Positions 1-61,367 of a stretch of DNA of 61,367 nt are shown here, in pieces. A model generated the notes under the pieces. The model was not told the DNA's origin. It was given only the letters and a program-made list of their open reading frames with translations, and did no database searches. Numbering within the stretch: position 1 is the first letter of the stretch; every line of letters begins with the position of its first letter. Origin of the DNA: a virus; IMG/VR virus record IMGVR_UViG_3300043493_000078; one strand, given 5' to 3'. Position numbers and translations under genes: made by a program.

Positions 1-127
1 TATGACGGCGGGTCTTTCAGGCACAATGGCCGGCACTATGAAAAACGGCGCGCGCAGAATTTCGAGAACTGGGTGGCGTGGGCCACACATTTCGCGGTCT
101 ATGTGCCGTATCTCAACAAGAACGGAA
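1..127. repeat. Terminal overlap: bases 1-127 are identical to 61241-61367, so the unique genome is 61,240 bp and circular or circularly permuted
   Basis: Read directly: both ends spell tatgacggcgggtctttcaggcacaatggcc...ctcaacaagaacggaa. An ORF continues in frame across the junction. Confidence 0.95.
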
Positions 128-219
128 TCAGCATCCTGAATGCCTGTCCATCATCGGCGATCCACTGTTTTCAAAAGGTCACGCTGGACGACGGGGTGAA
201 CTGGGTCTGTGGGGCGTGA
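1..219 (+). CDS. 3' part of the DUF115/MptE-like (Maf-type) putative glycosyltransferase gene that starts at 60800
   Basis: Frame 1 is open from base 1 to TGA 217-219. Joining across the junction gives a 219-aa protein. Confidence 0.6.
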   Translation, partial: YDGGSFRHNGRHYEKRRAQNFENWVAWATHFAVYVPYLNKNGISILNACPSSAIHCFQKVTLDDGVNWVCGA

Positions 220-220
220 A

Positions 221-712
221 ATGTTGACACACGAACGTCTGCTGTCATTGCTTTCATACGAAAAACATACCGGCATCTTTAGGTGGCGGGTGGCGCGCTC
301 AAATGTGGCTGCTGGCAGTGTCGCTGGCGCAATCAGCAAGATCTCTGGTTACAGGGAAATTCGCCTGGATCGCAGGTTATATGGGGCTGCGCGGTTGGCA
401 TGGTTCTACGTGACTGGGGACTGGCCAAAGGTGACGGTTGATCATTGTGATACCGACCGCACGAATGATGCTTGGGAAAACCTGCGCGAAGCAAGCTACA
501 CCGAGCAAGCTCAGAACAGACCAAACCGTAGCGACAACAAGAGCGGCTTCAAGGGCGTGTCTCGCCATTCGCACAACGCACGATGGATAGCTAACATCTG
601 TATTGAAAAACGACAAACTTATCTCGGCTCGTTTGATGATCCTGCAGTGGCATACGCAGCTTATTTGATGGCGGCGCAAAAACACTTCGGGAAATTCGCC
701 AATGGCGGATGA
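221..712 (+). CDS. HNH homing endonuclease with C-terminal AP2 DNA-binding domain
   Basis: HNH_3-like DHCDTDRTNDAWENLREAS, then AP2-like SGFKGVSRH..RWIANI...YLGSFDDPAVAYAAY. ATG 221 lies 1 nt after the upstream stop. Confidence 0.8.
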   Translation: MLTHERLLSLLSYEKHTGIFRWRVARSNVAAGSVAGAISKISGYREIRLDRRLYGAARLAWFYVTGDWPKVTVDHCDTDRTNDAWENLREASYTEQAQNRPNRSDNKSGFKGVSRHSHNARWIANICIEKRQTYLGSFDDPAVAYAAYLMAAQKHFGKFANGG

Positions 713-1418
713 ATGCATATACATCGGCTACGATCAACGGCCAGCCGAAGTCTTGAGCTTTGCGGTTGCCCGCCATTCCATCAAGCGCAGGCTCAACCTG
801 CCAATCCCGATTTACGGGCTGCTTCTACAAGAGTTGAAAGAAGCGGGACTGTACTTGCGCAACATCGAGGTCCGCGATGGGCGTTTGTGGGACACGATCT
901 CTAATGCACCGATGGCTACTGAGTTTGCGATCAGCCGGTTTCTGGTGCCGTATATCGCGCGCGATGGCTGGGCATTGTTCGTGGATTGCGATGTCATGGC
1001 ACGGGTCAGCCTCACTCAGTTATTCGCATGCGGTGATCCCAGCAAGGCTTGCATGGTGGTCAAGCACGATCACCGTCCAAGCGGCGACACCAAGATGGAT
1101 GGGCAGGTGCAGACCGCCTATCCGCGCAAGAACTGGTCGAGCGTGGTGCTCTGGAATTGCGACCATCCCGGCACGAGGTGCCTGACACCTGCGCTCGTCA
1201 ACGCAAGGCCGGGACTCTGGTTGCATCAGTTCTCATGGCTGGACGACAACGACATCGGCGAACTCGATCCGCGCTGGAATCACTTGGTCGGGGAGGTCCT
1301 GCCACGGCAGGACGCCAAGCTGGTGCATTTCACCAACGGCACTCCGAACATGGCGGGTTATGAGGATTGTGAGTTCGCCGACGAATGGCGGGAAGAGCTC
1401 GAACGGTGGGCCGCATGA
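702..1418 (+). CDS. Nucleotide-sugar glycosyltransferase, GT8/GT-A-like
   Basis: 238 aa with a DxD-type motif (LFVDCDV) and the N-terminal IYIGYD pattern of small GT-A enzymes. Overlaps neighbours by 11 and 4 nt. Confidence 0.55.
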   Translation: MADECIYIGYDQRPAEVLSFAVARHSIKRRLNLPIPIYGLLLQELKEAGLYLRNIEVRDGRLWDTISNAPMATEFAISRFLVPYIARDGWALFVDCDVMARVSLTQLFACGDPSKACMVVKHDHRPSGDTKMDGQVQTAYPRKNWSSVVLWNCDHPGTRCLTPALVNARPGLWLHQFSWLDDNDIGELDPRWNHLVGEVLPRQDAKLVHFTNGTPNMAGYEDCEFADEWREELERWAA

Positions 1419-2380
1419 AATTGCTCGTCATCGGGCCCGACATCCGCGATTTCCGCAGGGTAAAGAACTTCACAGGTGTGCAGGCCTACTATCTTGCGCG
1501 CGAACTGCGAAGGCGCGGTGTCGAACTATGGTTCGTTGACGGCAAGCACGTCAACCCGCTGCAGCAGCTCGCGGCGTTGGACGCTCACGGGGCCGACCAT
1601 GTGCTGGCGCTTGGCCTGCGCTGGTTCACACACAAACCGATTGGCTGCGCAACGATCTTGAAGGGCAAGGTCAATGGCGCGGTCACGCAATTGCACGACG
1701 GCCTGGTGCACGAATATCTGGCCCCGCACCTGATCGGGGTGGATTGCACGTTCACCTTCCGTGACGACAGCACGCGGACCAAGGAGTGGGATCGCTACGC
1801 CAAGACCAACCATTACATCGGATGGGCGGCCGACCCCGACGTTCTGTTCCCGCAGCAGAGCGCGAGCATGCTGAGCGTCTTGATCGACCACTGCTATTAT
1901 AAGGGCGGGATGCCGGACATCACCTCGGACGTCACCGCAGACGTGATGGGGTTCGCGGCAAGGGGCGAGTGGCGTGACCGCTACACGGCGATCCGGGTGC
2001 GCAGGCTCGTCAATGGCGGCGCGGAGACCATCACTGTTGCCAACGTCGAGACGCAGCCGTTCGACCGCAAGCACATTCCATTCGAGGACATCGCCCGCGA
2101 GTATCGGCAGACCCACGTCTACATGGTCACCCACAAGGAAAGCGTTGGGCTCACGTGCCTGGAGCTGGCGTTCTGCGGCGCGCTGACGGTGGCGCCCGTG
2201 GGAATGATCTACAAGGACCGATTACAGACCATCAGCAATATCCAATACAACGGCACGCGCGCGCCGTGGACCGAGGTGCTCAACGCAATCAACATCGGGG
2301 CGGCCGCGAATCTGGCGCGAGAGCAGACCTGGGACAAGGTCGTTGAACGGATGCTGACGTGGTTCGGAGGCTATCGGTAA
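1415..2380 (+). CDS. Hypothetical protein, possible glycosyltransferase
   Basis: ATGA overlap with the upstream gene. The N-terminus MKLLVIGPD...YYLARELRRRGVELWFV resembles a GT-B Rossmann start. Assignment rests mainly on context. Confidence 0.35.
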   Translation: MKLLVIGPDIRDFRRVKNFTGVQAYYLARELRRRGVELWFVDGKHVNPLQQLAALDAHGADHVLALGLRWFTHKPIGCATILKGKVNGAVTQLHDGLVHEYLAPHLIGVDCTFTFRDDSTRTKEWDRYAKTNHYIGWAADPDVLFPQQSASMLSVLIDHCYYKGGMPDITSDVTADVMGFAARGEWRDRYTAIRVRRLVNGGAETITVANVETQPFDRKHIPFEDIAREYRQTHVYMVTHKESVGLTCLELAFCGALTVAPVGMIYKDRLQTISNIQYNGTRAPWTEVLNAINIGAAANLAREQTWDKVVERMLTWFGGYR

Positions 2381-2466
2381 TGTCACAAAATCTGGTGGGT
2401 TTCGTTTGGATATTGGCGCTGCTTGGCGCCGGCATCCTTGTCTACGTGCTGTTCATGCCATGGTAA
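2380..2466 (+). CDS. 28-aa hydrophobic micro-ORF (single transmembrane helix)
   Basis: MSQNLVGFVWILALLGAGILVYVLFMPW. TAATG overlap upstream and a 7-nt overlap with the downstream ATG 2460. Below the ORF-track length cut-off. Confidence 0.4.
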   Translation: MSQNLVGFVWILALLGAGILVYVLFMPW

Positions 2467-3110
2467 CGATCATCGCATGCGTGCGCACCGGTACCGCCTA
2501 TCCGTTCGAGTACGTCATCAAGCTGCGCAACATGGTGCAGCTCCACATGCACCGCCCCTTCGAGTTGGTCTGCATGACCGACCAGCCAGAGCGTTGCGAT
2601 GGAGTGACCTTTATCGACATTGCCGAAATCGCCCTTCCGGGATGGTGGGCGAAGCTTATTCTGTTCGCCCCCGAGTGGCGCGCCCTTCACAAGATCGTGT
2701 ACTTTGACTTGGATACCCTGATCATCAACGACATCACACCACTTGCGGATGTGCCGGGCGAGTTCGCGATTCTGGAAAGCCCGGTGCGGCAAGCGGGCAT
2801 CGCCAGCTATCCCTGCAAGTACAATTCGTCGGTGATGGTGATCGGTGCAGGCATGGCGAGTTTCGTCTGGACCCGCTTCGACCGGCAACGCGATCAGCTG
2901 ATGGCGCGCCATGAGCGATACGGCGACCAGAAGGTGATCGAGGAGCTGTATCCTTCGGCGTTGTTCCTGGCGCCATTGCTGCCAAAAAACTTCTTTATCA
3001 ATTACAGATACCTAACCATGCACAGGCCGCAGGCTTCGGTGGTGAATTTCGGTGGCTCACACAAGCCTGCGAACTGCCAGATCCCATGGGTGCAGCAGCA
3101 GTGGGCGTGA
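2460..3110 (+). CDS. Glycosyltransferase-like protein (GT-A fold, DxD)
   Basis: VTIIACVRTG...YFDLDTLIINDI (DxD). The ATG at 2460 is in frame with ORF 2406-3110. Confidence 0.5.
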   Translation: MVTIIACVRTGTAYPFEYVIKLRNMVQLHMHRPFELVCMTDQPERCDGVTFIDIAEIALPGWWAKLILFAPEWRALHKIVYFDLDTLIINDITPLADVPGEFAILESPVRQAGIASYPCKYNSSVMVIGAGMASFVWTRFDRQRDQLMARHERYGDQKVIEELYPSALFLAPLLPKNFFINYRYLTMHRPQASVVNFGGSHKPANCQIPWVQQQWA

Positions 3111-3751
3111 TGGTCTTCGAGATCGACGGGTTGGCGATCAACATCATCGACATTGACGACCGCATGGTCGTGCACATGCGCGCGGGCGATGGCTACGAGC
3201 ACGACAGTTTGACCGCGTGGGCGCGGCTGATCAAACCCGGTCGGGTTGCCATCGACGTCGGTGCCTACACCGGATTGTTTTCGATCATCGCGGCGTTGCG
3301 CGGCGCTTATGCGGTTGCGCTCGAACCGATGCCGGCAAACCGGTGGCGGCTAAGTGCAAATGCGGCGCTCAACAAGGCAAATGTGAAGATTATCGGGTGT
3401 GCCGCTTCCGACTGTAATGGGATGGCAAAGCTCAATTACAACCCGCGCGTCCCACTTACTACTGGAGCAAGTTTGGAGGTCGGCGTGAAGGCTCACGCAG
3501 AGAGCCTACTAGTGCCGTGTTTGACCATCGATTCGCTCGCGTACACGGAAGTTGCCGCTATAAAGCTGGATGTTGAGCGGCACGAGCTTTCGGTGTTGCG
3601 CGGCGCGATGCAAATCATCAAACGAGATCGTCCTGCGATGTTGATCGAGACGCTGGATGACGAGATGCGAGTCCAGGTCATGAAACTGCTTCCGCGTTAC
3701 GCCGTCGCTGCCGTGCTCGACACGCGGAATACGTTGTTTGTCCCAAAATAG
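3110..3751 (+). CDS. FkbM-family SAM-dependent methyltransferase
   Basis: Motif I AIDVGAYTGLFS and the FkbM signature IKLDVERHELSVLRGA. TGATG overlap with the upstream gene. Confidence 0.75.
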   Translation: MVFEIDGLAINIIDIDDRMVVHMRAGDGYEHDSLTAWARLIKPGRVAIDVGAYTGLFSIIAALRGAYAVALEPMPANRWRLSANAALNKANVKIIGCAASDCNGMAKLNYNPRVPLTTGASLEVGVKAHAESLLVPCLTIDSLAYTEVAAIKLDVERHELSVLRGAMQIIKRDRPAMLIETLDDEMRVQVMKLLPRYAVAAVLDTRNTLFVPK

Positions 3752-3756
3752 AAAAA

Positions 3757-3781
3757 GGGACAGGCGTTGCGCGCCTGCCCC
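3757..3781. terminator. GC hairpin flanked by an A-run upstream (a T-run on the minus strand): terminator-like, possibly bidirectional
   Basis: GGGaCAGGCG ttgcg CGCCTGcCCC, preceded by aaaatagaaaaa. There is no T-run on the plus side. Confidence 0.35.
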
Positions 3782-3811
3782 TCTCCCTTCAGCTGCGTAG
3801 AGCTTCCAGAC

Positions 3812-3859
3812 ACGCACAGCAATGCATTGTTGGACATCATGGACTAAAAGGCCGTGCGC
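3812..3859 (+). repeat. Degenerate copy of the stem/A/N9/core/N9/TG/stem hairpin module
   Basis: ACGCACAGC-A-atgcattgt-TGGACATCA-tggactaaa-AG-GCCGTGCGC. The core matches 8/9 and 7/9 stem positions pair. Confidence 0.4.
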
Positions 3860-3885
3860 TCCACCGTTTTACATAGGAGCGTGAA

Positions 3886-4251
3886 ATGCCACAAGGGCCG
3901 TTCGCGGGGACAGCATATCTAAAAGTCGATGGCGACATGTATCCACTAAAGGGGAACCTGACAGTATCGGCATCGGTGGTCGAGCGCACGGGCATTGCCG
4001 GACAAGACTACGTGCACGGCTACCAGGAACTACCGCGCGTGCCCTACATCGAGGGCGACGTGTCTACGCTGCCAGAGGTCAGCACCGAGTTTCTGGAATC
4101 GGTGATCGACGGCACTGTAACCGCAGAGCTGATCAACGGCACGACCTATGTCCTGCATAACGCTTGGACAAAAGGGCCGATTGACGTGAACACTCATGAC
4201 GGCCAGTTCCGCATTCGCTTCGAGGGGACCGGCTGCGAAGAAATGAAGTAA
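3886..4251 (+). CDS. Tail tube protein (Mu gpM / Phage_tube_2-like)
   Basis: 121 aa, SD taggag, directly upstream of the chaperone/frameshift/tape-measure set. The pattern G.AYLKVDG...GNLT...ERTGIAG is typical of this family. Confidence 0.7.
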   Translation: MPQGPFAGTAYLKVDGDMYPLKGNLTVSASVVERTGIAGQDYVHGYQELPRVPYIEGDVSTLPEVSTEFLESVIDGTVTAELINGTTYVLHNAWTKGPIDVNTHDGQFRIRFEGTGCEEMK

Positions 4252-4261
4252 CAGGAGCCGC

Positions 4262-4612
4262 GTGATGCCAGCTGAATCGGTGGCAAAGGTTATCGAGGCC
4301 AAGAAAGAAGAGCCGAACCCCAACGAGATCGTGGTCGATCTTACCGTTGCCGTGCAGGCGCATGGCGAGACGATCAAGAAGCTCAAGTTCCGCAAGCCGA
4401 CCGGCGGCGACATCATGCAGGCCGAGGTTTGGCCGATAGCGGTTAACCCGCTGACCGGTCAGGTAATGCCAGTACCTGCGGTGATGGGGCAGATGATGTC
4501 GCTGCTGGCGGCCGTGCCGCCATCGACTATCAAGGCGCTTGACGGTTCCGACTTCGCTGACTGCGCGATGACGCTCTCGCGTTTTTTCCAGCCAAGCGGA
4601 TGGTGGAGGTAA
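4262..4612 (+). CDS. Tail assembly chaperone (zero-frame product)
   Basis: 116 aa between tube and tape measure. Contains a slippery heptamer near its 3' end. Confidence 0.75.
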   Translation: MMPAESVAKVIEAKKEEPNPNEIVVDLTVAVQAHGETIKKLKFRKPTGGDIMQAEVWPIAVNPLTGQVMPVPAVMGQMMSLLAAVPPSTIKALDGSDFADCAMTLSRFFQPSGWWR

Positions 4613-4767
4613 TCCTCACGGCATACCGCTTGGCCAAGTACTACTCGCGACCGCCGTCAGAGTTTCTCGCAATGCCGCTCATGGAGCTCGAGCGCCATGC
4701 GTGGTGGACCGACTACCTGATCGAGACGGCAGAAGCAAAGCGGCCAAGGCACAGCAATGGCGGATGA
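4262..4767 (+). CDS. Tail assembly chaperone -1 frameshift fusion product (about 168 aa)
   Basis: The -1 extension PAKRMVEVILTAYRLAKYYSRPPSEFLAMPLMELERHAWWTDYLIETAEAKR... ends 10 nt into the tape-measure gene. Confidence 0.75.
4582..4588 (+). promoter_or_regulatory. Programmed -1 ribosomal frameshift site T_TTT_TTC
   Basis: The zero frame reads CGT TTT TTC. The -1 frame stays open from 4588 for 59 codons to TGA 4765-4767. Confidence 0.8.
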
Positions 4768-7700
4768 CGTTCTCCGATTAAAAGCGACAGTCGTCAGCGA
4801 GGAAGCGCTGGCGAACATTCGCGCGATCGGCCGCGAGATTGGTCTGGTGCCCGCGCGCGCCGGCAAAGGGGTGGCGGAGGTCAACACCCAGTTCGGCAAG
4901 CTGGGCGAGACCTTAAAGAAAGTAACCGGCGACGTTAAGAGTCTGGTCCCGGGGCTGAGTAGCTTTGGCATCGGCGCAGGATCGGCGGGCGCCGCCCTGG
5001 CCGCGTTGGTCGTCAACGCCACCAACGTTTCCCGGAAACTTGTCGACCTAAAATATGCATCACATGAGCTTGCCATGTCCGAGCGCGATCTTCGCGCTTG
5101 GTCACTGGCGGCCGAGAAGGTCGGCATTGCACCCGACTCGATGCGGGCTGGCCTTGCCAGCTTCAAGACCACCATGGACGGGCTGCGCTACAACATCGGA
5201 GGCGTGCGCAGCGAGCTGTACGCGTTGGGTGCCGGTCCCATCGTCGCGCGCATGCAGGCAGCGACCACGCAGGCCGACAAGCTGCGCGAGGCGTTCAAGT
5301 TCAAGGAAACCTTGCTGACGCAGCGCGATGGTCAGCTCAAGGCCCGCGCGTTCTTCGACATGCTGGGTATCGGCGCCGACAAGGTGCGCTTGTCATACGA
5401 GGAGTTTGAGAGGGCACAAGGCAAGATCAAGCCGTTCTCGGCGGAAGACATCGAGAACGCCAGGAAGTTTCATGAGGGGATTACCGATCTCACCCAGGCT
5501 TGGGATCATCTCACCACCAAACTAGGCGTTACGACGTTCCCCGCGCTCACGAGGCTCGTGGAGTTTCTCGAAAAGGCCGTTGGCCTTATGGAGAAGTGGG
5601 AACGGCTCAACGAGAAATACAGTCTAAAGCCTCCTGCATGGACTCCGACCGATCCGACCGGCAAGCCGCTGCCGTTCGATCCAAACAACCCGGCGACATG
5701 GAAACAGCCGGACACGGCGAAGCCGGCAACAGCACCGCCTGCAGTACGGACACCGCAGACGTTGCGCGAGAGGATTCTGCGCTGGCGCGGCAAGCTTCCG
5801 CCGTTGCCTGAAGACGAGCAAGCGCCAGCAGCCCCAACAGTTCAGGAAATGAACGAGCAGCGGCAGATGCTGCTTGGAAAGAAACCGCTGCCGCCGGTCT
5901 CGAAGGGCAGCATGGTGCCCGACTGGGTCACGTCGAAGGTCTGGCAGAGCCTCAAGGACTTCGTCAGCATCCCGGGCAAGGCGATGGGGGGGCGCTATGC
6001 CCCCGGGCCCGAGACACCGGGGCAGTGGTCCGAGGAAGACGAGTTCAGGGCACGGATCGCGCGCGAGCAGGAGATCAAGGACGCGGCGCGTCTGGCCCCA
6101 TGGGCGCTGAGTGCCGGGACGTTCAGCCCAGGTGCCACCCTCCCGCGGAAAGCGGTGCCGGAAAGCGCACCCGGTGCGGCTCGTCAGGCGGGAGACGTGG
6201 TGGAGCAAACAGCTCCACGTCCGACCGTGCAGGAGATGAATGCGCGGCGCGGCAGATGGGGGCGCGCCACCGTGCAACCGATGTCACTGACGGAGGGCGG
6301 TGGCATCACGCTCGACGCCGCACAGTTCAAGGCGCTGGGGCAGAAGCCGCAGCAGGACGCGAGTGAAGCCAGCCGCATCGTCAAGGTCGGCGTGTTCGAT
6401 GCACTGGTCGAGTTCAAGAGCTATGTCGAGGCCGGCGCAGCGCCGAGCGAGAGCGGCGGCATTGTGCCCGCCTCCTTGACGACCGGCGGCATGCGGCCGA
6501 CCGGTGGCATGCCGGGCATGCCAGGATTCGGTGGCACAGGGCCCGGTGCTGCCGGCGTCCCCGGGGGGATTCCGAACCTGACGGCTCCTGGCGCGCCTGG
6601 GGCGGTCCCTGGTGCGCCCGCCGGTCCAGGTGCTCCCGGTGGCCCGGGCGGGCCTCCAGCGGCGCCCGGCGCTCCTCCAGGCGCTGGCGGGCCTCCCGCG
6701 GCACCCGGCACCGGCACCCCTGGCGTGCCGGCGCCAGGCGCGCCCGGCGCTCCCGGTGCCCCGCCGGGCGGCGGCGAGATGGGCGGACCAGCAGCGCTCG
6801 CGTTCGCGCGCCAGCATCTCGGCGAGGATGAAATTCGGGATCAGAGCAAGCTGCAGGACTTCTTCCGGTCGAAGGGCATCAACGTGAATCCACGCACGAC
6901 CGCGTGGTGTGCGGCATTCGTCAACGCCAACCTGCAGCAGGCCGGCATCAAGGGCACCGGATCGCTCGCGGCCGGGAGCTTCACCAATTACGGCACGGCA
7001 GTGAAGCCCGGCGAGGTCCAGCCCGGTGACATCGGTGTCGTTCGCGGGCGCTCGCCACGTACTGGCATAGAGGGTCAGCACGTCGGCTTCCTGACCGGCG
7101 AAAGCCGCATCAATCCCAAGACCGGGCAGCTTGAGTACAAGATGCTGGGCGGCAACCAGGGCGGCACCGCCAGCGGGCAAGGCGGCGTGTCCGAGCAGTG
7201 GCGGCCGGCGTCGAGCTTGCATTTGCGCCGCCCGCCGAGCCCAACCGGCGTTGCTACGGCGCCACCGCAGCCAATCGCACCGAGCGGCGTTTCGCAGCAA
7301 GGCGACACGCCCGCATCCTCTGCCAATGTTCGCTACAACAACCCGGGTGCACAGTATCCAAGCAAAGCTGCAGAAGGCTTCGGGCAGACCGGCTTCGGCA
7401 TCATCGGCGGCGGGCACAAGATCGCGCAATTCCCAACACCGGTGCATGGCGCGGCGGCGAACATTGACCTGTTGTCGCGCAAGTACACCGGCATGACCAT
7501 CGGCGATGCGATGCGAAAATGGAGCGGCGGAAGCCGCGCGGTTCCAGGTCCTTTGGGCAATTACGACCCCAAGACTGTCATCACACCGGAGATGATGCAG
7601 GACCCGCAGTTCGCGATCCCGTTCATGAAAGCTGTCGCTAGTGGCGAGGCTCGCGGTCGCTACCCGATGAGCGATGCGCAGTGGGAGCAGGCGCACCGCT

Positions 7701-8017
7701 GGGTGATGCAGGGTGGGCCAAAGGGCGAGCAAGCGCTGACACGAACGCAGGGGCCATCGAACAAGCCCACGGCATCAGCACAGCCACCGGTCGGCATGAA
7801 TCGCGGCCCCGACCGCATCGATCGCGCCATTGACGCCGGCAACGGTGGCGGCGGCATCAATGCCACAGGCAGCGTCAACGTCACGGTCAACAGCAACGGC
7901 ACCAGGGCATCGACCGACGTGAAGTCGGACGGGATGTTCCAGCAAACCTCTGTGCGCAGCCATCGGCAGATGGCGCCGACCGACAAGCCCGACATCGGCG
8001 CGAGCGGGGAGGAGTGA
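4757..8017 (+). CDS. Tail tape measure protein with embedded cell-wall hydrolase domain
   Basis: 1086 aa with a helical N-terminal half, directly after the chaperone frameshift pair. Confidence 0.9.
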   Translation: MADDVLRLKATVVSEEALANIRAIGREIGLVPARAGKGVAEVNTQFGKLGETLKKVTGDVKSLVPGLSSFGIGAGSAGAALAALVVNATNVSRKLVDLKYASHELAMSERDLRAWSLAAEKVGIAPDSMRAGLASFKTTMDGLRYNIGGVRSELYALGAGPIVARMQAATTQADKLREAFKFKETLLTQRDGQLKARAFFDMLGIGADKVRLSYEEFERAQGKIKPFSAEDIENARKFHEGITDLTQAWDHLTTKLGVTTFPALTRLVEFLEKAVGLMEKWERLNEKYSLKPPAWTPTDPTGKPLPFDPNNPATWKQPDTAKPATAPPAVRTPQTLRERILRWRGKLPPLPEDEQAPAAPTVQEMNEQRQMLLGKKPLPPVSKGSMVPDWVTSKVWQSLKDFVSIPGKAMGGRYAPGPETPGQWSEEDEFRARIAREQEIKDAARLAPWALSAGTFSPGATLPRKAVPESAPGAARQAGDVVEQTAPRPTVQEMNARRGRWGRATVQPMSLTEGGGITLDAAQFKALGQKPQQDASEASRIVKVGVFDALVEFKSYVEAGAAPSESGGIVPASLTTGGMRPTGGMPGMPGFGGTGPGAAGVPGGIPNLTAPGAPGAVPGAPAGPGAPGGPGGPPAAPGAPPGAGGPPAAPGTGTPGVPAPGAPGAPGAPPGGGEMGGPAALAFARQHLGEDEIRDQSKLQDFFRSKGINVNPRTTAWCAAFVNANLQQAGIKGTGSLAAGSFTNYGTAVKPGEVQPGDIGVVRGRSPRTGIEGQHVGFLTGESRINPKTGQLEYKMLGGNQGGTASGQGGVSEQWRPASSLHLRRPPSPTGVATAPPQPIAPSGVSQQGDTPASSANVRYNNPGAQYPSKAAEGFGQTGFGIIGGGHKIAQFPTPVHGAAANIDLLSRKYTGMTIGDAMRKWSGGSRAVPGPLGNYDPKTVITPEMMQDPQFAIPFMKAVASGEARGRYPMSDAQWEQAHRWVMQGGPKGEQALTRTQGPSNKPTASAQPPVGMNRGPDRIDRAIDAGNGGGGINATGSVNVTVNSNGTRASTDVKSDGMFQQTSVRSHRQMAPTDKPDIGASGEE
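6484..6790 (+). other. Pro/Gly/Ala low-complexity linker inside the tape measure protein
   Basis: GMRPTGGMPGMPGFGGTGPGAAGVPGG...APGAPGAPGAPPGGGE. Confidence 0.8.
6791..7165 (+). other. TIGR02594/NlpC-P60-like peptidoglycan hydrolase domain inside the tape measure protein
   Basis: ALAFARQHLGEDE...TAWCAAFVNANLQQAG...GQHVGFLTG...MLGGNQGG, carrying the Cys, His and GGNQ hallmarks of the family. Confidence 0.7.
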
Positions 8018-8018
8018 C

Positions 8019-8615
8019 ATGGAGATCATGCAGCTCAAGAACGCGTGGCGTAGCAAATGGCTCCCGGCGGAATTCCGTGGCGCGCTGTTCTTTGTCGAAA
8101 ACGATGTTCGCAGCGGCGGGCGCCGGGTCACGCTCCACCAGTATCCAAAGCGCAACATCCCCTACGCCGAAGACATGGGCCGCAGCGCCAACCGCTTCAT
8201 CGTGCAAGGTTACCTGATAGCTTTGCCCGGCAATGCGAAAAGCTATCTCGAATTGAAAAACGATCTCATCACGGAGCTGGAGAAGGACGGGCCAGGGTTA
8301 TTGCGGTTGCCGATGATCTATCTGCTCTCGGATGTGACCGTGATGGTGCAGAGCTACAGCATCACCGAGTCGCGCGAGCGCGGTGGCATGTGCGTCGTTG
8401 AGATGGACTTCATCGAGTACGGCGACCCGGTCTATCGGCCGAACATTTCGACGCCGCAGGAGATCACTCAGTCGGCCGACAACCTCGAGCAGACCGTCAT
8501 CAGCCCATGGGGAACCGGCCAGGGAAAAGAGGCGGCGCCCTATCTGGAGAACTACCAGCGCGCGTTGGAGGACGCGCAAGTGCAGATCGGCGACATCCAG
8601 ATCACGGGGGAATGA
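8019..8615 (+). CDS. DNA circulation protein, N-terminal domain (Mu gp43/gpN-like)
   Basis: LPAEFRGALFFVENDVRSGGRRVTLHQYPKRNIPYAEDMGR matches the DNA_circ_N signature. Confidence 0.7.
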   Translation: MEIMQLKNAWRSKWLPAEFRGALFFVENDVRSGGRRVTLHQYPKRNIPYAEDMGRSANRFIVQGYLIALPGNAKSYLELKNDLITELEKDGPGLLRLPMIYLLSDVTVMVQSYSITESRERGGMCVVEMDFIEYGDPVYRPNISTPQEITQSADNLEQTVISPWGTGQGKEAAPYLENYQRALEDAQVQIGDIQITGE

Positions 8616-16784: not shown

Positions 16785-19700
16785 GCGATGTCACCGTCAT
16801 CAACGATGACAGCACCGTTGTCATCACTGAATCCCCGTCGGTCGCCGTGAGCGTGGATGCAGAAGTAGTAGTCATCCCGTCGGGGGTGCCTGGGCCTCTT
16901 GGTCCCGGGCTACCCGACATTGCTGCTCTTAAAGCGCTGACGGTCACCAATATTCGTGTCTATGTCGCGGGGTACAATTTTGCTGCCGATGGCGGTGGTG
17001 GAATGTTCAGTGGAGATACAGCATCTGTTGCGACGGCTGATGATGGACTTGTCATTGCGCCAAATGCTGGCGCTGGCCGATGGCTCCGTATATTCGACGG
17101 TCAAAATATCAACGTTAAGTGGTATGGCGTGAATGGTGATGGGGCTACGGAGAGTTCAACGAAACTCAATGCGGCGATGGCAGCGGCAATCGCTGTCAAG
17201 GGAGGTATGTACTTTCCAAGTACCATTTCGCGGTACCTTTTGCCGTCTGCGTTGGTCGTTCCTGACAATACACACGGGCTGCGGATTTTTGGCGATATGG
17301 GTTCCACCCCGGTTGGTGCCGGTTATTCTGGTGCATGCATCGCGACTACTGCGGCCAGTGTCATTGACATGACAGGAACTGCGATCGGCGGCACTGGCTC
17401 TATCAGCGAGATCAGTATCGAGCGCCTTCAACTGCATGCGAGTGGAGCCAACGGCAAAGTAATTAAGGCATGGAATGTCGATCACTTGCTTCTATCACGT
17501 CTGGTCGTTAACGCGAATAATGGCGTAGCCATCGACATGGCTGGCACTGCTGATTTTTTAATAGAACAGGTTCAAGCTTATTCAGGAGGAGGTGCATGTT
17601 TTCGCGCATCTCAAGATGGCGTCGGATCGCAGCCCATCGGTCCCGGCAAGATAGATACCTGCTCTTTTTCGATTACCGGCGGTTCATTCCCGCTAATGTC
17701 GATTACGGGCGAGCCGCTAGGTGTCATTGTCCAGAATTGTGGTTTTAACTGGCCAGATTCGACGGGTGCATCTGTAATCGACATAGACGGGTCTACCTCT
17801 CCAACGCAGGAAGGCTCGATCTCGTTTATTCAGTGTCACGCAGAAAGCACGTATAATACGACCAGCACTGGCACGACATTCAGAATTGGTGCCAACCATA
17901 AAGCTGGTACGATCATCGTTGACGGTGGAAATTATTGGGGCCATGGCGATGGAACCAACTATCAACGGGACTGGATGCAAATTGTTGCTGCGCGTGGCGT
18001 ATTTGTCAGAAATTCGATTGCTTCCAAGCTGACGGCGGCCAATGGCTTCAGCCGGGCGATGATCAGACTTGAGAGCACGTTTCCGGCCGCCGGAGATTCT
18101 TATTCGTTCGATGGTTTGATTTACGACGGCTCTGGCGCGATGTATTCCGATGCTGCCGGCATTTTGTCGGGAACTGGCGATAAGTTCAGCAACAATGTCG
18201 ATATCGGTGGTAGTTTTCGGCTTCACACTCAGCCAGCCGGCTGCGCGCAATTCGATGCGTCTGGTGTTCTCACGTCTACGGGAGCGCCTTGCGGCGGCGG
18301 CAGCGGCTCGTTGACCATCGGCACGACACCGATCAGCGGCGGTGCGTCTGGCCGTGTTCTCTATGAGAATGCTGGTGTACTCAACGAACTTCTGACGACT
18401 GGCACTGGCGACGTGGTGCTGCATTCGTCGCCGGTATTTGCTGGAACGATTACGGCGCAGCAAGCTGGCTTCGCCGGCAATGTCGGGATCACTGCGGCAA
18501 CTCCTTCCACTTTGCCGACAGAAGGTGCGCTGACAATCGTTGGCGGCGCTGGAATTCAAGGTAACGTCAACATTGGCGGTGGACTCGTAGCGGGAGGTGG
18601 ACTTCGCCTACCGGCTCAATCGGCTGGCTACGCGCAGTTCGATTCAGGTGGTGTGCTGTTTTCTAGTGCAGCTCCTACTGTGTCACTGATTGTCGGCACG
18701 ACGCCGATCAGCGGCGGTACGTCTGGCCATGTTTTGTACAATTCTGGCGGCATCCTCAATGACCTGATCACGACCGGTACCGGCAGTGTCGTGATGCACA
18801 ATGCTCCGACATTCGCTGGGGCGATCACGGCACAGTCGGCAGGGTTCAGCGGCAATGTCGGGATCACCGCGATAACGCCATCGACCATGCCTTCGGAAGG
18901 AGCGCTGACGGTTGCCGGCGGAGCGGGAATTCAGGGCAACGTCAATATCGGCGGCGGGCTTGTAGCGACGGGGCTTCGCCTTTCTACGCAATCCGCTGGC
19001 TACGCGCAATTCGACTCGGCCGGTGTGCTGACCTCGACCGGTGGAACGCCCAGCAGCTCGCTGATCGTGGGATCGACGCCGATCAGCGGCGGCGCGACCA
19101 ATCGTGTTTTGTTTCAATCAGGCACCGTCCTCAGCGAGATCGACATTACCGGCACTGGCAATGCGGTGATGCAAAATTCACCGACGTTTACCGGGACGAT
19201 CACGGCGAACCAAGCGGGGTTTTCCGGCAACGTCGGGATCACTATCAACACGCCTTCTACTTCGCCCACGACCGGCGCGCTAACCGTCGCGGGCGGCGTC
19301 GGTGTCGGTGGCGCGCTTAACGTTACCGGAGATTTCCTTGCGCGCGACATCAGGGCTGCGCGCGATGCCACCTCGGGGGTGTTGTACTGGGGCAGTGCCG
19401 GGACAACCAGATATCTGTCCGGCGATGCCTCGGCTTTGCAATTGGGCGGCGTTCCACTCCGCGTCCTTGACGCTACGGCGGCGATTTCCCCTGCGACCGG
19501 CGCACTGACGGTGGCGGGAGGCGTCGGGATCGGTGGCAAGCTGTGGCTTCCCGCAGTTGCGAATATCTTGAACGTCGGTGGCGGTGGACAGGGGACAAAT
19601 TCGGTCTTGAATCTTCGTTACAATTCTTCGGGCTACTGCGGTATTGAAATCAGCTCGAGCACGGCTGGGACTGCCGGTACAATTCTCTCCATCCTGGATA

Positions 19701-20527
19701 GCGCCGACGCTTACGTTGCAACATGGTCTTACGGTGCCGGTCAAAGTTCGCTGGTGTGGGGCGGGAGACCTATCAGCATCGTGCCACCGGTCACCATCAC
19801 GGACCCGACCGCCTCCGCCTCCGCCACCACCGGCGCGCTGACGGTGGCAGGCGGGCTGGGGGTTGCCAAATCTATTAATTGCGGAGAGCCGGTTAAAGTG
19901 AATGGAGCCAGCGGCAATGCAGTCCTCGCTTCTACCCTCATCGGCACCACTGGTTATTCCGGATTGTCCGTTAATCCTCTCGCCTTTGGCGCCGCCTTTG
20001 CCAGTTACCCACATATTCTCATGGGAACGAATATAGGGACGCCTCCCGATTCCGGCCTCACATTTGGCGTTCCGACCGGATCGTTTCATACGCTTGACGT
20101 TAATGGATTGCCGTCACTGGTCGTGCGGGCTGGTTCCGTTACGTTTAACACAGTGGGCACAACGGCGTCAGCCGCCAATGCATTTCTCGATGGTGCAGCC
20201 AGTAACAGCTTGTTGCGTTCGACCTCGACCATCAAGGTCAAGGCCGACGTCAAAAATTTATCGCTGCAGGAAGCGCGCCGGATCGTCATGAGCGCAAAGC
20301 CGATCAGTTATCGTTCGCTCTGCGCTGCCGACGATCCCAAAGCGGAATTCATCGGAATGGTGGCTGAATGGGAAGCCGAGAACGACGCGCGTCTGGTCAG
20401 CCGCTTCGGCGAGGAATGGGGTGGCGTGATGTACGATCGCTATGTGGCGCCGCTATTGGCTGTCGTTGCGGACCAGGAACGCCGCCTAGCCGCGCTCGAA
20501 CAGAAGGGAGCAAAACATGGCACTTGA
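16781..20527 (+). CDS. Tail spike: pectate-lyase-like beta-helix, three about 125-aa repeats, and a C-terminal S74 intramolecular chaperone domain
   Basis: NVKWYGVNGDGATESSTKLNAAMAAA (Pectate_lyase_3-like). The C-terminus STIKVKADVKNLS...MYDRYVAPLLAVVADQERRLAALE is Peptidase_S74-like. Confidence 0.8.
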   Translation: MSDVTVINDDSTVVITESPSVAVSVDAEVVVIPSGVPGPLGPGLPDIAALKALTVTNIRVYVAGYNFAADGGGGMFSGDTASVATADDGLVIAPNAGAGRWLRIFDGQNINVKWYGVNGDGATESSTKLNAAMAAAIAVKGGMYFPSTISRYLLPSALVVPDNTHGLRIFGDMGSTPVGAGYSGACIATTAASVIDMTGTAIGGTGSISEISIERLQLHASGANGKVIKAWNVDHLLLSRLVVNANNGVAIDMAGTADFLIEQVQAYSGGGACFRASQDGVGSQPIGPGKIDTCSFSITGGSFPLMSITGEPLGVIVQNCGFNWPDSTGASVIDIDGSTSPTQEGSISFIQCHAESTYNTTSTGTTFRIGANHKAGTIIVDGGNYWGHGDGTNYQRDWMQIVAARGVFVRNSIASKLTAANGFSRAMIRLESTFPAAGDSYSFDGLIYDGSGAMYSDAAGILSGTGDKFSNNVDIGGSFRLHTQPAGCAQFDASGVLTSTGAPCGGGSGSLTIGTTPISGGASGRVLYENAGVLNELLTTGTGDVVLHSSPVFAGTITAQQAGFAGNVGITAATPSTLPTEGALTIVGGAGIQGNVNIGGGLVAGGGLRLPAQSAGYAQFDSGGVLFSSAAPTVSLIVGTTPISGGTSGHVLYNSGGILNDLITTGTGSVVMHNAPTFAGAITAQSAGFSGNVGITAITPSTMPSEGALTVAGGAGIQGNVNIGGGLVATGLRLSTQSAGYAQFDSAGVLTSTGGTPSSSLIVGSTPISGGATNRVLFQSGTVLSEIDITGTGNAVMQNSPTFTGTITANQAGFSGNVGITINTPSTSPTTGALTVAGGVGVGGALNVTGDFLARDIRAARDATSGVLYWGSAGTTRYLSGDASALQLGGVPLRVLDATAAISPATGALTVAGGVGIGGKLWLPAVANILNVGGGGQGTNSVLNLRYNSSGYCGIEISSSTAGTAGTILSILDSADAYVATWSYGAGQSSLVWGGRPISIVPPVTITDPTASASATTGALTVAGGLGVAKSINCGEPVKVNGASGNAVLASTLIGTTGYSGLSVNPLAFGAAFASYPHILMGTNIGTPPDSGLTFGVPTGSFHTLDVNGLPSLVVRAGSVTFNTVGTTASAANAFLDGAASNSLLRSTSTIKVKADVKNLSLQEARRIVMSAKPISYRSLCAADDPKAEFIGMVAEWEAENDARLVSRFGEEWGGVMYDRYVAPLLAVVADQERRLAALEQKGAKHGT
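18230..19340 (+). repeat. Three in-frame tandem repeats (387 and 372 nt periods) inside the tail spike gene
   Basis: The unit Q.AG.AQFD..GVL.S......L.VG.TPISGG......L......L......TGTG..V....P.F.G.ITA...GF.GNVGIT...PST.P..GALT.AGG starts at 18230, 18617 and 18989. Confidence 0.85.
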
Positions 20528-35479: not shown

Positions 35480-35887
35480 ATGACAGACGACACGGGCAAC
35501 AAGATTACCTTTAACCGCGACAGCAAGTTCGACATTCAGCTCAAGCAAGCGCTGATCGCCGAACGCCGCCTCGGAGACATCTTCGCTGCGGCTACCATCG
35601 AGAAGATCGAACTAAAGACCGAGACATGGCAGTGGGAGAGGACTGGCAACATCTGCATCGAATATAGATGCGATGGTCGACCGTCCGGCATCTCAGTCAC
35701 TGAGGCAGACTATTGGGTGCACGAGTTGCGCCGCGATGACGACACGCTGCTTTACCTGATGTTTCCAGTACCCCGGCTCAAAGAGCTGTGCCGCGCAGCA
35801 ATAAAAGCCGGACGCGCGCGTTCGAATGCCGGCGACGACGGCCGGTTCGATGTCGTTATCCTTCCCCTTCGGGAGTTGCTGAAATGA
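35480..35887 (+). CDS. Hypothetical protein with a possible PD-(D/E)xK motif
   Basis: GDIFAAATIEKIELKTE. Confidence 0.4.
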   Translation: MTDDTGNKITFNRDSKFDIQLKQALIAERRLGDIFAAATIEKIELKTETWQWERTGNICIEYRCDGRPSGISVTEADYWVHELRRDDDTLLYLMFPVPRLKELCRAAIKAGRARSNAGDDGRFDVVILPLRELLK

Positions 35888-37196: not shown

Positions 37197-37241
37197 GATC
37201 GGGCAGCGGTGGTTCCTGCGGCGGCGAGGGAGGGCGGTGGC

Positions 37242-38183
37242 ATGAGCTTGGTTGAGTTGCGGCGCAACGTCGACTCCGATGCTTTGGCCATCGGCAATCT
37301 TTGGCGAAAGGCATGCCAGTCGCTCGTCGACAGCACGCGCTACTACATTGAATGCGGGCAGCGACTCATCGACAAAAAAGAAAGTGTCGGGCATGGCAAC
37401 TGGCTGGCTTGGCTCAAGGTCAACGCCGATGTGCTGGGGTTTGATAACGATAGCACCGCCCGCAGATTGATGGCGGCTGCAAAACGTGCGCCAGCGCACG
37501 ATTTGACTGCGGTCGATGCTTTCGATGTCAACCGTCAGCTTTGGGGCCACGAGAAAGCCTCCGGCGCAAAAGGCTACAATCGTATTGCCGGGCCCGACGG
37601 CGCTTGCTGCGGCTTCGAGGAATTGCACCGGCTTGTTGCCGAGGGGATGACTTTCGGCAATCTCTATGTCGATCCGCCGTGGCTATACGACAATCAGGCC
37701 ACCCGCGCAGCGACCGGCAACCATTACGAGGGATTGACCGTCGAGCAGCTGTGCGATGCTGACCTGATGCCGGTCGCAAAGCTCGCCGCGGCTAATTCTC
37801 ATCTGCACCTTTGGACGACCAACGGTTTTCTGTTCGAGTGCCCGCGCATCTTTGATGCGTGGGGCTTCGAGTTCAAATCGACTTTTGTTTGGACAAAATC
37901 AGAAATCGGGCTCGGCAATTATTGGCGTAATTCGCATGAGATTTTGTTGACTGCGGTGCGCGGCGATGCTGAGCGCTTCGACGTGCACAATCTGCGCAGT
38001 TGGATTGAATGCTCGCGTGGCCGTCATAGCGACAAACCAGATCAAGTTCGCGATTTCATCGCGCGGGCCAGTCCGACGCCCCGCATCGAATTGTTTGCTC
38101 GATCTGAACATGACGGATGGCTGTCGTGGGGAAATGAAATCGACAAAACCTTGTTCAGCAAGCGTGTAAAGGAGGTTGCGTGA
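37242..38183 (+). CDS. MT-A70-family N6-adenine DNA methyltransferase (2) with DUF3102-like N-terminus
   Basis: NLYVDPPWLY...LHLWTT... Confidence 0.85.
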   Translation: MSLVELRRNVDSDALAIGNLWRKACQSLVDSTRYYIECGQRLIDKKESVGHGNWLAWLKVNADVLGFDNDSTARRLMAAAKRAPAHDLTAVDAFDVNRQLWGHEKASGAKGYNRIAGPDGACCGFEELHRLVAEGMTFGNLYVDPPWLYDNQATRAATGNHYEGLTVEQLCDADLMPVAKLAAANSHLHLWTTNGFLFECPRIFDAWGFEFKSTFVWTKSEIGLGNYWRNSHEILLTAVRGDAERFDVHNLRSWIECSRGRHSDKPDQVRDFIARASPTPRIELFARSEHDGWLSWGNEIDKTLFSKRVKEVA

Positions 38184-60799: not shown

Positions 60800-61367
60800 A
60801 TGGATGTCTACGGCAAGATCAGCAAGCCGTTCTGGGACGACAAGCCGGTCGCGGTCGTGGCGGGTGGCCCGTCGCTGATCGGCTTCGATTTCGAGCGGCT
60901 GCGCGGATGCCATTTGCTGGCAGTAAAAGGGGCTATGTTCGACATCCCGTGGGCTGATGCAGGCTTCGGCCTCGACATGCCGCGCTACGAGGAATGGCGC
61001 GACAAGCTCACCAGGGTGCAAAGCCGGGTCTATTGGGCAGTGCCAGAGGACCAGCTTGAAAAGACCGGCCCGCCGCCATCGAAGAACGTAACCTTCCTGC
61101 GCAGGCTCGTGGGCGAGGCGCTATCAACCGATCCTGGTGAAATCTATGGCGGCGGCACCAGCGGGTTCGGGGCATTGCAGATTTGCTTGCACAAGCGAGC
61201 CAAGCGCATCGTCCTGTTCGGTTACGATTATGATGGGGCGTATGACGGCGGGTCTTTCAGGCACAATGGCCGGCACTATGAAAAACGGCGCGCGCAGAAT
61301 TTCGAGAACTGGGTGGCGTGGGCCACACATTTCGCGGTCTATGTGCCGTATCTCAACAAGAACGGAA
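60800..61367 (+). CDS. DUF115/MptE-like (Maf-type) putative glycosyltransferase, 5' part (continues at base 1)
   Basis: VAVVAGGPSL ... GGGTSGFGALQICLHKRAKRIVLFGYDY follows the DUF115 pattern. Confidence 0.6.
   Translation, partial: MDVYGKISKPFWDDKPVAVVAGGPSLIGFDFERLRGCHLLAVKGAMFDIPWADAGFGLDMPRYEEWRDKLTRVQSRVYWAVPEDQLEKTGPPPSKNVTFLRRLVGEALSTDPGEIYGGGTSGFGALQICLHKRAKRIVLFGYDYDGAYDGGSFRHNGRHYEKRRAQNFENWVAWATHFAVYVPYLNKNG
61241..61367. repeat. Terminal overlap, right copy (identical to 1-127)
   Basis: Read directly. Confidence 0.95.

Follow-up and report, generated by a model that had tools for sequence, protein, structure and literature searches.

The sheath-to-tube interval and its enzymes

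The window, by which we mean the whole 61,367-nucleotide stretch of viral DNA analysed here, ends as it begins: bases 1–127 are repeated exactly at 61241–61367, a terminal overlap of 127 bp that indicates a circular genome of 61,240 bp. An integrase gene (PF00589) at 25918–27045 marks the phage as temperate. It is a soil phage, and among cultured hosts it is linked only to Bradyrhizobium, through a prophage. The tail sheath gene (59287–60753; PF04984, E 2.4e-14; PF17482, 2.5e-13; phrog_165, 3e-157) and the tail tube gene (3886–4251; PF10618, 7e-31; phrog_185, 3e-21), both on the plus strand, enclose five enzyme genes on that same strand, here called A, C, D, F and G. An earlier note on this DNA had described the block as a glycosyltransferase/methyltransferase island, and its coordinates and gene content stand with some corrections, as do the shared orientation of the genes and the overlaps of their starts and stops. 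The enzyme folds and families establish that the block is a glycosyltransferase/methyltransferase cassette, an assignment that folds and profiles support for A, D, F and G and, less strongly, for C.

Gene A, the core gene of the cassette, is an unbroken plus-strand reading frame across the junction of the circle (60800–61367, then 128–219; with the repeat, its 3′ end occupies 1–219) and encodes a 219-aa glycosyltransferase of the GT42/DUF115 fold. Its AF2 model (pLDDT 90) has one match in the PDB at E ≤ 0.001, the Campylobacter sialyltransferase Cst-II, alongside 27 viral DUF115/MptE-like fold matches, and its sequence matches the profile of phrog_4603 (2.4e-20). The likeness to Cst-II (GT42) and to the DUF115/MptE-like/Maf superfamily lies in a single Rossmann-type domain, in which the N-terminal GGGPS, the TSG and the G-x-D-Y motifs each align to a Cst-II counterpart; the sequence similarity to Cst-II is not significant (profile E 0.6), and the motif alignment identified no counterpart of its catalytic His188. 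Characterised members of this fold use CMP-activated ulosonic or nonulosonic acids as donors. Cst-II acts on LOS and Maf on flagellin, whereas gene A is phage-borne and shorter than either.

The gene had been called DUF115/Maf-type, and of this description the DUF115/GT42 fold holds while membership of Maf is not supported: the score against PF01973 is 20.7 bits, under the 34.6-bit threshold, and the enzyme is a minimal one. The Maf connection bears on the reading that the cassette glycosylates a host protein, flagellin or pilin, altering motility or blocking flagellotropic or pilus-dependent competitors. That gene A shares its superfamily with the Maf flagellin glycosyltransferases, with a weak PF01973 match of its own and viral MptE-like fold matches, speaks for such a role, as do the PF01973 domains of some close homologues and the presence in one other phage, L015, of a Maf-sized DUF115 protein of 672 aa beside a gene C homologue. 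Gene A, however, is without the extra Maf domains (the L015 protein is about three times longer), its sole significant solved-structure match is Cst-II and not Maf, no flagellar genes are linked to it, and four further enzymes would be unneeded for a flagellin target, so that we hold this role to be decidedly improbable.

The other enzymes also lie on the plus strand. Gene C (702–1418) encodes a GT-A, GT8-like nucleotide-sugar transferase (phrog_28018, 9e-53) with an invariant D95-x-D97; some of its homologues carry PF01501, hhalign scores it at 63% against gene F around the DxD, and its PDB profile matches are weak (WbbM, 0.08). Gene F (2460–3110) encodes a GT-A glycosyltransferase of the GT8 family (phrog_1962, 3e-24) with invariant D83-x-D85 and D156-Q157, matching the profiles of glycogenin (E 4e-6), a Skp1 alpha-galactosyltransferase and LgtC. 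Gene D (1415–2380) encodes a GT4-like retaining glycosyltransferase of the GT-B fold, whose AF2 model (pLDDT 94) has 104 PDB fold matches at E ≤ 0.001, headed by MshA, GlgM, glycogen synthase and BshA and with SenB too among the top matches. Three glycosyltransferase-like proteins with DxD motifs had been described, which is correct for C and F and not for D, where the invariant motif is E242-x7-E250 (EX7E). Gene G (3086–3751) is, as previously proposed, an FkbM-family SAM-dependent methyltransferase (PF05050, 4.9e-12; TIGR01444, 85 bits against a cut-off of 37.7; phrog_8156, 1e-28). No convincing membrane segment was found in A, C, D, F or G (Kyte-Doolittle 19-residue maxima of 0.9–1.8), and no nucleotide-sugar synthesis gene among the window ORFs scanned.

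Two further plus-strand reading frames interrupt this series. Gene B (209–712) encodes a free-standing HNH-AP2 homing endonuclease (HNH_3, PF13392, 6e-10; a weak AP2 match; phrog_99, 1e-60), in agreement with the HNH assignment made earlier; it is missing from all relatives, the closest, L103, included, and is thus a separate, lineage-specific element outside the glycosylation machinery. ORF E (2383–2466), listed before as a 28-aa transmembrane peptide, is indeed hydrophobic (Kyte-Doolittle 19-residue maximum 2.56), but its standing as a gene is doubtful: conservation is confined to the N-terminus and to the nearest relative, L104, and L003–L005 and L027 have no space for a counterpart, so it is probably not a conserved gene. 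In the 134 bp that separate G from the tube gene, immediately after the G stop codon, folding of 3745–3890 gives a GC-rich hairpin (3756–3782) with a weak U tract on the plus strand, which the terminator scan did not flag; the same scan found no terminator-like site on the plus strand at either cassette border. Nor was a sigma-70-like promoter found on that strand at either border with the E. coli consensus, a search that might overlook an alphaproteobacterial promoter used in lysogens.

The cassette in related and unrelated phages

Gene A directly follows the sheath gene in every one of the 45 relatives that have both genes on the contig and a sheath identity of at least 70%. The cassette takes nested forms at these loci: A alone (13), A with F (24), and A, C, D, F and G together (8). 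Eleven more distant relatives are without it, and in ten of these sheath and tube lie 44–217 bp apart, in keeping with the adjacency that the earlier note gave for Mu-like tails; the eleventh, L097, has a different insert of 1.2 kb. The view of the block as an island inserted in the present genome did not survive this comparison, for the cassette is a long-standing feature of the clade and the HNH gene alone is recent. Remnants of gene G in L031 suggest that the cassette there was once larger and has been reduced, and dN/dS values of 0.13–0.31 (sheath 0.15, tube 0.12) indicate that the cassette genes are under purifying selection.

Unrelated phages, too, have homologous sets of A, C, F and FkbM genes within their structural or late regions. 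They lie in the structural/late module of Mesorhizobium and Sinorhizobium HK97-type prophages and of the podovirus MW202512, adjoin capsid, portal and a collagen-repeat protein in L008, and adjoin the portal and the long DUF115 protein in L015. In the Caulobacter phage CcrColossus the set is flanked by a tail protein and the lysis genes; this phage belongs to the phiCbK group, which we take to be strictly lytic, and this would rule out lysogenic conversion in that phage. XacN1, a myovirus of the proteobacterium Xanthomonas that is presumably lytic as well, has an A-like ORF374 adjoining ORF373, the C-terminal half of which is F-like.

Coliphage P1 offers a further point of comparison. Its PmgO is homologous to gene A (hhalign 96.8%, E 2.8e-10), its PmgQ to gene F (99.9%, E 6e-34) and its Dbn to gene D (tblastn against P1 Dbn and P7 Glt, about 30% identity, E ~1e-31). 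The genes pmgO and pmgQ, named as “putative morphogenetic” genes, form one operon downstream of the annotated late promoter LPpmgL, and dbn is located in the ban operon; unlike the present cassette, none of the three lies between sheath and tube. P1 is without a gene C homologue, and the annotation of its regions viewed includes no FkbM gene. To our knowledge the much-studied P1 virions are not known to be glycosylated, which tells against a virion target for the cassette. The P1 homologues are nonessential and dispensable for plaque formation (PMC10695390), as might be expected if the genes were selfish cargo that does nothing for the phage life cycle, or if their enzymes yielded a small molecule or a soluble glycoconjugate; MshA, BshA and SenB, among the top fold matches of gene D, are small-molecule glycosyltransferases. 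Either reading is nevertheless improbable given the clade-wide retention of the cassette, a purifying selection similar to that on structural genes, and the recurrence of the same enzyme set in many phage lineages.

Phage glycosyltransferases of the GT-A and GT-B folds, sometimes several per genome, are also known to glycosylate hydroxymethyl-pyrimidine DNA (Pyle 2024, as cited in PMC12619734), and the cassette might accordingly be thought to hypermodify the phage genome with glycans for restriction evasion, as in T-even and other phages. This seems extremely improbable here: the ORFs scanned include no hydroxymethylase, no thymidylate-synthase-like gene and no phage DNA polymerase, and instead encode three ordinary DNA methyltransferases; the same cassette is present in the integrated prophage of Bradyrhizobium sp. 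BRP22, which is replicated by the host; and a sialyltransferase-fold enzyme with a sugar O-methyltransferase is unlike known DNA glycosylation systems.

Host surface and virion as candidate acceptors

GT8 and GT42 enzymes are known chiefly for their part in making LPS and LOS, and together with GT4 they are typical of such pathways; several gene C homologues are labelled “lipopolysaccharide biosynthesis glycosyltransferase” by JGI. The main alternative to a virion target is that the enzymes work on lipid-linked intermediates of LPS, EPS or capsule in the cytoplasm of a lysogen or an infected cell, and so change the receptor of the phage’s own fibre, excluding related phages or keeping progeny off debris. 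That the phage is temperate fits this reading. Its 1261-aa fibre (16742–20527) resembles pectate lyase weakly (E 5.5e-4), with a score of 20.2 bits that falls short of the 27-bit Pfam threshold, and if the fibre binds a host polysaccharide, modifying that polysaccharide would be biologically sensible. The variable content of the cassette resembles O-antigen locus variation, and a similar gene in the Sinorhizobium prophage Phi3LM21 has been read as LPS-modifying (PMC5537653).

Other features argue against a surface target. The serotype-converting gtrABC modules of Shigella SfV/SfII and that of Salmonella epsilon15 likewise come from temperate phages whose tails are similar and of the Mu/SfV type (the sheath is about 42% identical), and their enzymes also act on sugars; located next to int/att and expressed in lysogens, however, these modules include membrane proteins, whereas the present cassette, with no GtrA/GtrB-type or other membrane protein, consists of soluble enzymes in the tail operon, some 25 kb from the integrase and with no promoter or terminator of its own detected. 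Gene A is fixed in the whole clade, unlike a sporadic moron, homologous sets occur in CcrColossus and XacN1, and the A-like and F-like genes of P1 follow a late promoter; late expression would leave little time for remodelling of the cell surface. On balance we regard a surface target as a serious possibility, though an unlikely one.

Decoration of virion proteins, before or during assembly, by a late-expressed cassette of soluble cytoplasmic enzymes is in our judgement the best reading, and we give it about an even chance; that the acceptor is a virion protein is something we infer from the genes. The late-operon position is weak evidence when taken alone, since unrelated accessory genes use such sites, the homing endonuclease here and an Acb2/Tad1-like gene within the related cassette of L030 among them. 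The idea gains support from the conserved and nested state of the cassette in the clade, its recurrence in unrelated structural or late modules such as that of CcrColossus, the late-operon homologues of P1 and the stained glycoproteins of XacN1. In the latter, at least two virion proteins stain as glycoproteins, which the authors ascribe, without a genetic link, to other glycosyltransferases, ORF328 and ORF334 (PMC5852040). Virion glycosylation had been thought known from actinophages and not from this type of phage; XacN1, albeit a jumbo phage of 385 kb, is a reported proteobacterial case.

The actinophage precedents are the mycobacteriophages Che8 (gp110), Corndog (gp38) and Myrna (Freeman et al. 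2023, as cited in PMC12363180 and PMC12619734). As proposed here, they rely on phage-encoded cytoplasmic glycosyltransferases, and their glycans sit on capsid and tail-tube subunits; they are, however, siphoviruses of Gram-positive actinobacteria, and their virion-protein acceptors contrast with the putative one here. A further difference is that no Ser/Thr-rich C-terminal tails were found in the present phage: in sheath, tube and capsid alike, no clear extension of this kind goes together with presence of the cassette, and only two small loops do so, both phylogenetically confounded. No match to A, C, D or F was found by tblastn in any Mycobacterium phage. We know of no GT42/DUF115-fold core enzyme in mycobacteriophage glycosylation.

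If virion proteins are indeed the target, the cassette would presumably be co-transcribed with the tail genes, and gene A, a minimal enzyme of the GT42/DUF115 fold, may act as its autonomous core. The retaining enzymes F and C (GT8-like, GT-A) and D (GT4-like, GT-B) could then add further sugars from host nucleotide-sugar pools, and G could O-methylate a sugar; the donor sugars and this order of action are likewise putative. Where relatives have gained or lost C, D, F or G, the glycan would change.

Genome layout and the block between sheath and tube

The first 127 bases of the window (1-127) are an exact direct terminal repeat of the last 127 (61241-61367), so the window represents a circularly closed genome of 61,240 bp, the junction of which falls within gene A. 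The 5′ part of the late operon encodes terminase, a lambda-type portal, a ClpP-type protease, a gpD-like decoration protein, an E-type capsid protein and head-tail proteins, and a GIY-YIG/NUMOD3 endonuclease gene (58263-58946) lies upstream of the tail sheath gene (59287-60753). The sheath gene is followed by a block that precedes the tail tube gene (3886-4251), beyond which are the tail assembly chaperone, the tape measure and a Mu-type baseplate. Five enzyme genes make up the cassette in this block, A (60800..61367 continuing at 128..219; 219 aa), C (702-1418), D (1415-2380), F (2460-3110) and G (3086-3751), and they are accompanied by the HNH-AP2 endonuclease gene B (209-712) and the small ORF E (2383-2466, 28 aa). 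All are on the + strand and most ends overlap, in agreement with the co-orientation and start/stop overlap described in the earlier note. At both borders of the block, consensus scans of the + strand were negative for promoter-like and terminator-like sites; late co-transcription of the block is inferred. The sole structure at the borders is a GC-rich hairpin directly after the G stop codon (3756-3782), whose U tract on the + strand is weak and which has a strong run of T on the other strand; the corresponding spacer in the related prophage of Bradyrhizobium sp. BRP22 is 46 bp and leaves no room for a counterpart.

The late operon contains two free-standing homing endonucleases, the GIY-YIG/NUMOD3 gene and B, neither of which occurs in the closest relative (L103) or in the BRP22 prophage. 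B was considered as a part of the glycosylation system and rejected, as it does not occur in the relatives; it is the only recent insertion in the block. ORF E was also rejected as a cassette component, on conservation evidence: it is recognisable solely in the closest relative, in which A is 94% identical, and in more distant ones D and F abut or overlap. The spacer between D and F shows indel polymorphism, since the nearest relative L104 (10460-10733) has about 330 extra bases relative to window 2440-2460, flanked by the short repeat CTGTTCATGCCATGGTAAC.

Several other features of the window were recorded in passing. The tape measure gene (4757-8017) includes a Pro/Gly/Ala-rich low-complexity stretch with a GC of 0.72 (6400-6720) and, further along, a part that looks peptidase- or lysozyme-like by eye. 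The early region carries three DNA methyltransferase genes (35788-36933, 37209-38183 and 39642-40931; two MT-A70 and one N6_N4) and, on the - strand, an ORF with weak matches to IS110-family transposases (29499-30362; PF02371 2e-4, phrog_4285 3e-10).

Enzymes encoded by the cassette

A nucleotide search of 1-4300 against isolated phages gave no match, NCBIfam gave a name to G alone, and single-sequence PDB searches with A, C, D and F returned nothing useful, such that profiles and AF2 models were needed. For A, an AlphaFold model built from 38 homologues (mean pLDDT 90) has a single Foldseek match in the PDB with E<=0.001, the Campylobacter sialyltransferase Cst-II (2x61_B; E 8.7e-4, probability 1.0, TM 0.49), and the GGGPS, TSG and G-x-D-Y motifs of A align with their Cst-II counterparts. 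The catalytic residues of the Cst-II type are His188 and Tyr156/Tyr162; the lid region of A (residues 150-164) is predicted with low confidence, and no invariant His that could stand for His188 was found there. The fold also matches 27 viral proteins, several of them labelled MptE-like or DUF115, and A matches phrog_4603 (2.4e-20), whose label of alpha-2,3-sialyltransferase is an annotation rather than the outcome of a test. At the level of sequence, the A profile has no significant similarity to GT42 members (E 0.6-0.9 against Cst-II chains), and A scores 20.7 bits against PF01973 (MAF_flag10/DUF115), below the gathering score of 34.6; some close homologues do carry PF01973 among precomputed hits. 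The model thus predicts a GT-A-variant single Rossmann fold like that of Cst-II, and given the fold and motif matches and the sub-threshold Pfam score A is assigned to the GT42/DUF115 fold rather than to Maf.

A had earlier been described as a DUF115/Maf-type protein of a family used for flagellin glycosylation. Maf flagellin glycosyltransferases are proteins of about 600 aa with flanking substrate-binding domains. A is a single domain of 219 aa with a sub-threshold PF01973 score and no flagellar linkage: it lies between sheath and tube, and no flagellin or nonulosonic-acid genes were found in the window. The Maf assignment is therefore not supported, and flagellin or pilin, the target that such an enzyme would imply, is kept as a minor alternative.

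Of the other four enzymes, D, modelled at pLDDT 94, has a GT-B fold with two Rossmann domains and 104 PDB matches at E<=0.001, mostly GT4-type enzymes with MshA, GlgM, glycogen synthase and BshA at the top. It has no match to Pfam Glycos_transf_1, and its E-x7-E motif (E242, E250) is invariant; fold and motif together place it with the retaining GT-B family GT4 of CAZy. For F, a 40-sequence profile finds glycogenin (E 4e-6) as well as Skp1 alpha-galactosyltransferase and LgtC, with an invariant DxD (D83-x-D85) and D156-Q157. The GT-A domain, the DxD and the profile match to GT8 structures make F a predicted GT8 enzyme; the window protein itself has no PF01501 match, and weak ones occur in 13 of the 40 homologues. 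C has an invariant D95-x-D97 and a few homologues that carry PF01501, together with weak profile matches to the PDB (0.08 and 0.21) and an hhalign score of 63% against F, for which reasons it is probably a GT8-like glycosyltransferase. G scores above the curated cut-offs of both PF05050 (46.7 bits, cut-off 22.7) and TIGR01444 (85.2 bits, cut-off 37.7), as expected of the FkbM methyltransferase reported before. Of the three glycosyltransferase-like proteins with DxD motifs in the earlier note, C and F retain that description and D does not, having the GT-B fold and EX7E; the glycosyltransferase folds on which its case depended were supported by structure prediction for A (Cst-II fold) and D (GT-B).

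No convincing membrane segment was found in A, C, D, F or G, and no nucleotide-sugar or modified-base pathway among the window ORFs scanned. Glycosylation of DNA, a further minor alternative, was rejected because those ORFs yielded no hydroxymethylase or replication genes; other products are likewise minor candidates.

History of the cassette and its relatives in other phages

The cassette was surveyed in 56 related loci, each with its sheath and its tube gene. A follows directly after the sheath gene in all 45 loci with a sheath identity of at least 70%, and the forms are nested: A alone in 13 loci (sheath-tube gap 0.7-1.3 kb), A+F in 24 (1.2-3.0 kb) and A+C+D+F+G in eight (3.7-4.7 kb). The remaining 11 have no cassette, all with a sheath identity of 64% or less, and here the gap is 44-217 bp in ten and 1.2 kb in L097. 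In this last locus, whose sheath is 54% identical, the 1.2 kb are an insert of another kind, including a 168-aa ORF (3143-3649) that is class I methyltransferase-like by eye. Fragments of G in one A+F phage point to reduction from a larger cassette. The BRP22 prophage, at about 363.5-384.2 kb of contig JADYVX010000003 in assembly GCA_020194175.1, has the full five-gene order and provides the sole connection with a cultured host. When a genome collection was scanned with the A profile, the only matches were Bradyrhizobium sp. BRP22 and a single MAG contig, and the evidence on host range is accordingly thin. Relative to that prophage, dN/dS is 0.13-0.31 for the cassette genes and 0.12-0.24 for sheath, tube and capsid, with synonymous sites close to saturation. 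Conservation, nested forms and dN/dS together indicate that the block is an old, selected part of the clade. The earlier picture of an island inserted between sheath and tube thus holds only for the HNH gene, and the cassette itself is long-standing.

The same enzymes recur outside the clade, where A-like and C-like genes often come with further sugar enzymes, F-like or FkbM genes among them. HK97-type prophages of Mesorhizobium loti and Sinorhizobium fredii have such sets within their head and connector modules, and a podovirus has one that separates capsid and "stabilization protein" genes. In L015 the neighbours are an epimerase, the portal and a DUF115 protein of 672 aa. Caulobacter phage CcrColossus, of the phiCbK group known as strictly lytic, has the set flanked by a tail protein gene on one side and the lysis genes on the other. 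In an HK97-type siphovirus contig (L008) an A-like/C-like pair lies beside capsid, portal and collagen-repeat genes; the 457-aa collagen-triple-helix-repeat protein (6927-8300), encoded between the portal and the pair, may be a fibre that could act as glycan acceptor. Unrelated accessory genes also land at such sites, as seen from an Acb2/Tad1-hairpin (anti-CBASS/Thoeris sponge-like) gene inside the related glycosylation cassette that a Sinorhizobium-type prophage carries (L030, 11549-11797). In L026 (9246-9998) and L023, a distant C homologue is immediately preceded by a KdsA-like gene of the DAHP_synth_1 family (Kdo-8-phosphate synthase type), and a methyltransferase gene and a JmjC gene are also present; this lineage may thus use ulosonic-acid chemistry.

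Coliphage P1 encodes three of the five enzymes, with homologues of A in PmgO (hhalign 96.8%, E 2.8e-10), of F in PmgQ (99.9%, E 6e-34) and of D in Dbn. In P1, pmgO and pmgQ belong to one operon with the annotated late promoter LPpmgL in front. None of pmgO, pmgQ and dbn is needed for plaque formation (PMC10695390). In Xanthomonas phage XacN1 A-like and F-like genes adjoin, and glycoprotein staining of its virions was positive for two or more proteins (PMC5852040).

The acceptor of the predicted glycan

Late, cytoplasmic glycosylation of virion proteins is the reading best supported by these findings, and we would give it an even chance. The enzyme identities, their conservation in the clade and their recurrence elsewhere are established; the acceptor, the donor sugars and the order of action are inferred. 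In this scheme A would be the autonomous core transferase, with F, C and D lengthening the glycan and G adding a methyl group. The main rival, modification of the host surface polysaccharide, is somewhat unlikely: the phage is temperate, the GT families of the cassette are typical of LPS synthesis and a similar Sinorhizobium prophage gene has been read as LPS-modifying (PMC5537653), but the cassette is embedded in the tail operon, lacks membrane partners and is a fixed feature of the clade, and in P1 homologues stand behind a late promoter. Also counting against this rival, homologues occur in CcrColossus and XacN1, which are known as lytic phages. In its favour, the long fibre (16742-20527, 1261 aa) has a weak, sub-threshold pectate-lyase-like match near its N-terminus (PF12708, E 5.5e-4), which hints at a polysaccharide receptor. 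The same fibre also contains three long repeats, each about 90-100 aa, and probably ends in a chaperone-like part.

Ser/Thr-rich extensions or insertions tracking with the cassette were sought in the sheath, tube, capsid, decoration and head-tail proteins, and only two small candidates emerged. At about residues 44-57 of the gpD-like decoration protein (55756-56133), cassette-bearing relatives have a Thr-rich loop, KKTAGATTDTPATY, that could be an O-glycosylation site; three relatives lacking the cassette (L083-L085) have other sequence in its place or a deletion. In the region of beta-sandwich domain II of the sheath, a 2-3-residue S/T-containing insertion (ATTASTDAP) occurs in carriers of the five-gene cassette and in L031 and is absent from most other aligned relatives. 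Both are confounded by phylogeny and therefore serve as leads, not as evidence.

A broader proposal is that virion O-glycosylation is a widespread and hitherto unrecognised system in proteobacterial phages, in which a minimal GT42/DUF115-fold core (A, or PmgO in P1) would put a CMP-activated ulosonic acid directly onto tail or head proteins, and GT8, GT4 and FkbM modules would be gained or lost to vary the glycan. We consider this unlikely as it stands; under it, the donor of A would be predicted to be CMP-activated Kdo, pseudaminic or legionaminic acid.

The closest functional parallel is virion glycosylation in mycobacteriophages; the fold of its core enzyme differs from that of A. In the searchable literature, virion glycosylation with a genetic link is documented only for a few mycobacteriophages, where it shields particles from antibodies. 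When A, C, D and F were compared by tblastn with 50,697 phage records, none of the matches was to a Mycobacterium phage, and no homology to the glycosyltransferases of Che8, Corndog or Myrna (Freeman et al. 2023, as cited in PMC12363180 and PMC12619734) was thus detected. Gtr-type serotype-conversion modules, in contrast, consist of membrane GtrA, GtrB and Gtr(type) by int/att, whereas the window enzymes have no membrane segment and the integrase is at 25918-27045. The searchable literature reads phage glycosyltransferases in Gram-negative hosts as serotype-conversion or DNA-modification enzymes, and full-text searches turned up neither a description of the cassette nor any case of glycosylated virions among phages of rhizobia.

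Were the target instead the host surface, this would be an unusual case of receptor remodelling from a late operon. If virion glycosylation is correct, a conserved, modular tail-operon cassette in a common soil phage clade would extend the phenomenon to Gram-negative phages, with homologues in the structural or late regions of alphaproteobacterial phages, jumbo phages and coliphage P1, and the long unexplained pmgO, pmgQ and dbn of P1 would gain a testable function in a tractable model. It would also bear on phage stability, adsorption and immune recognition, with relevance to rhizobial inoculants and phage therapy; and should the system prove widespread, glycan-coated virions would be a feature of P1 and of many phages from soil, freshwater and marine habitats.
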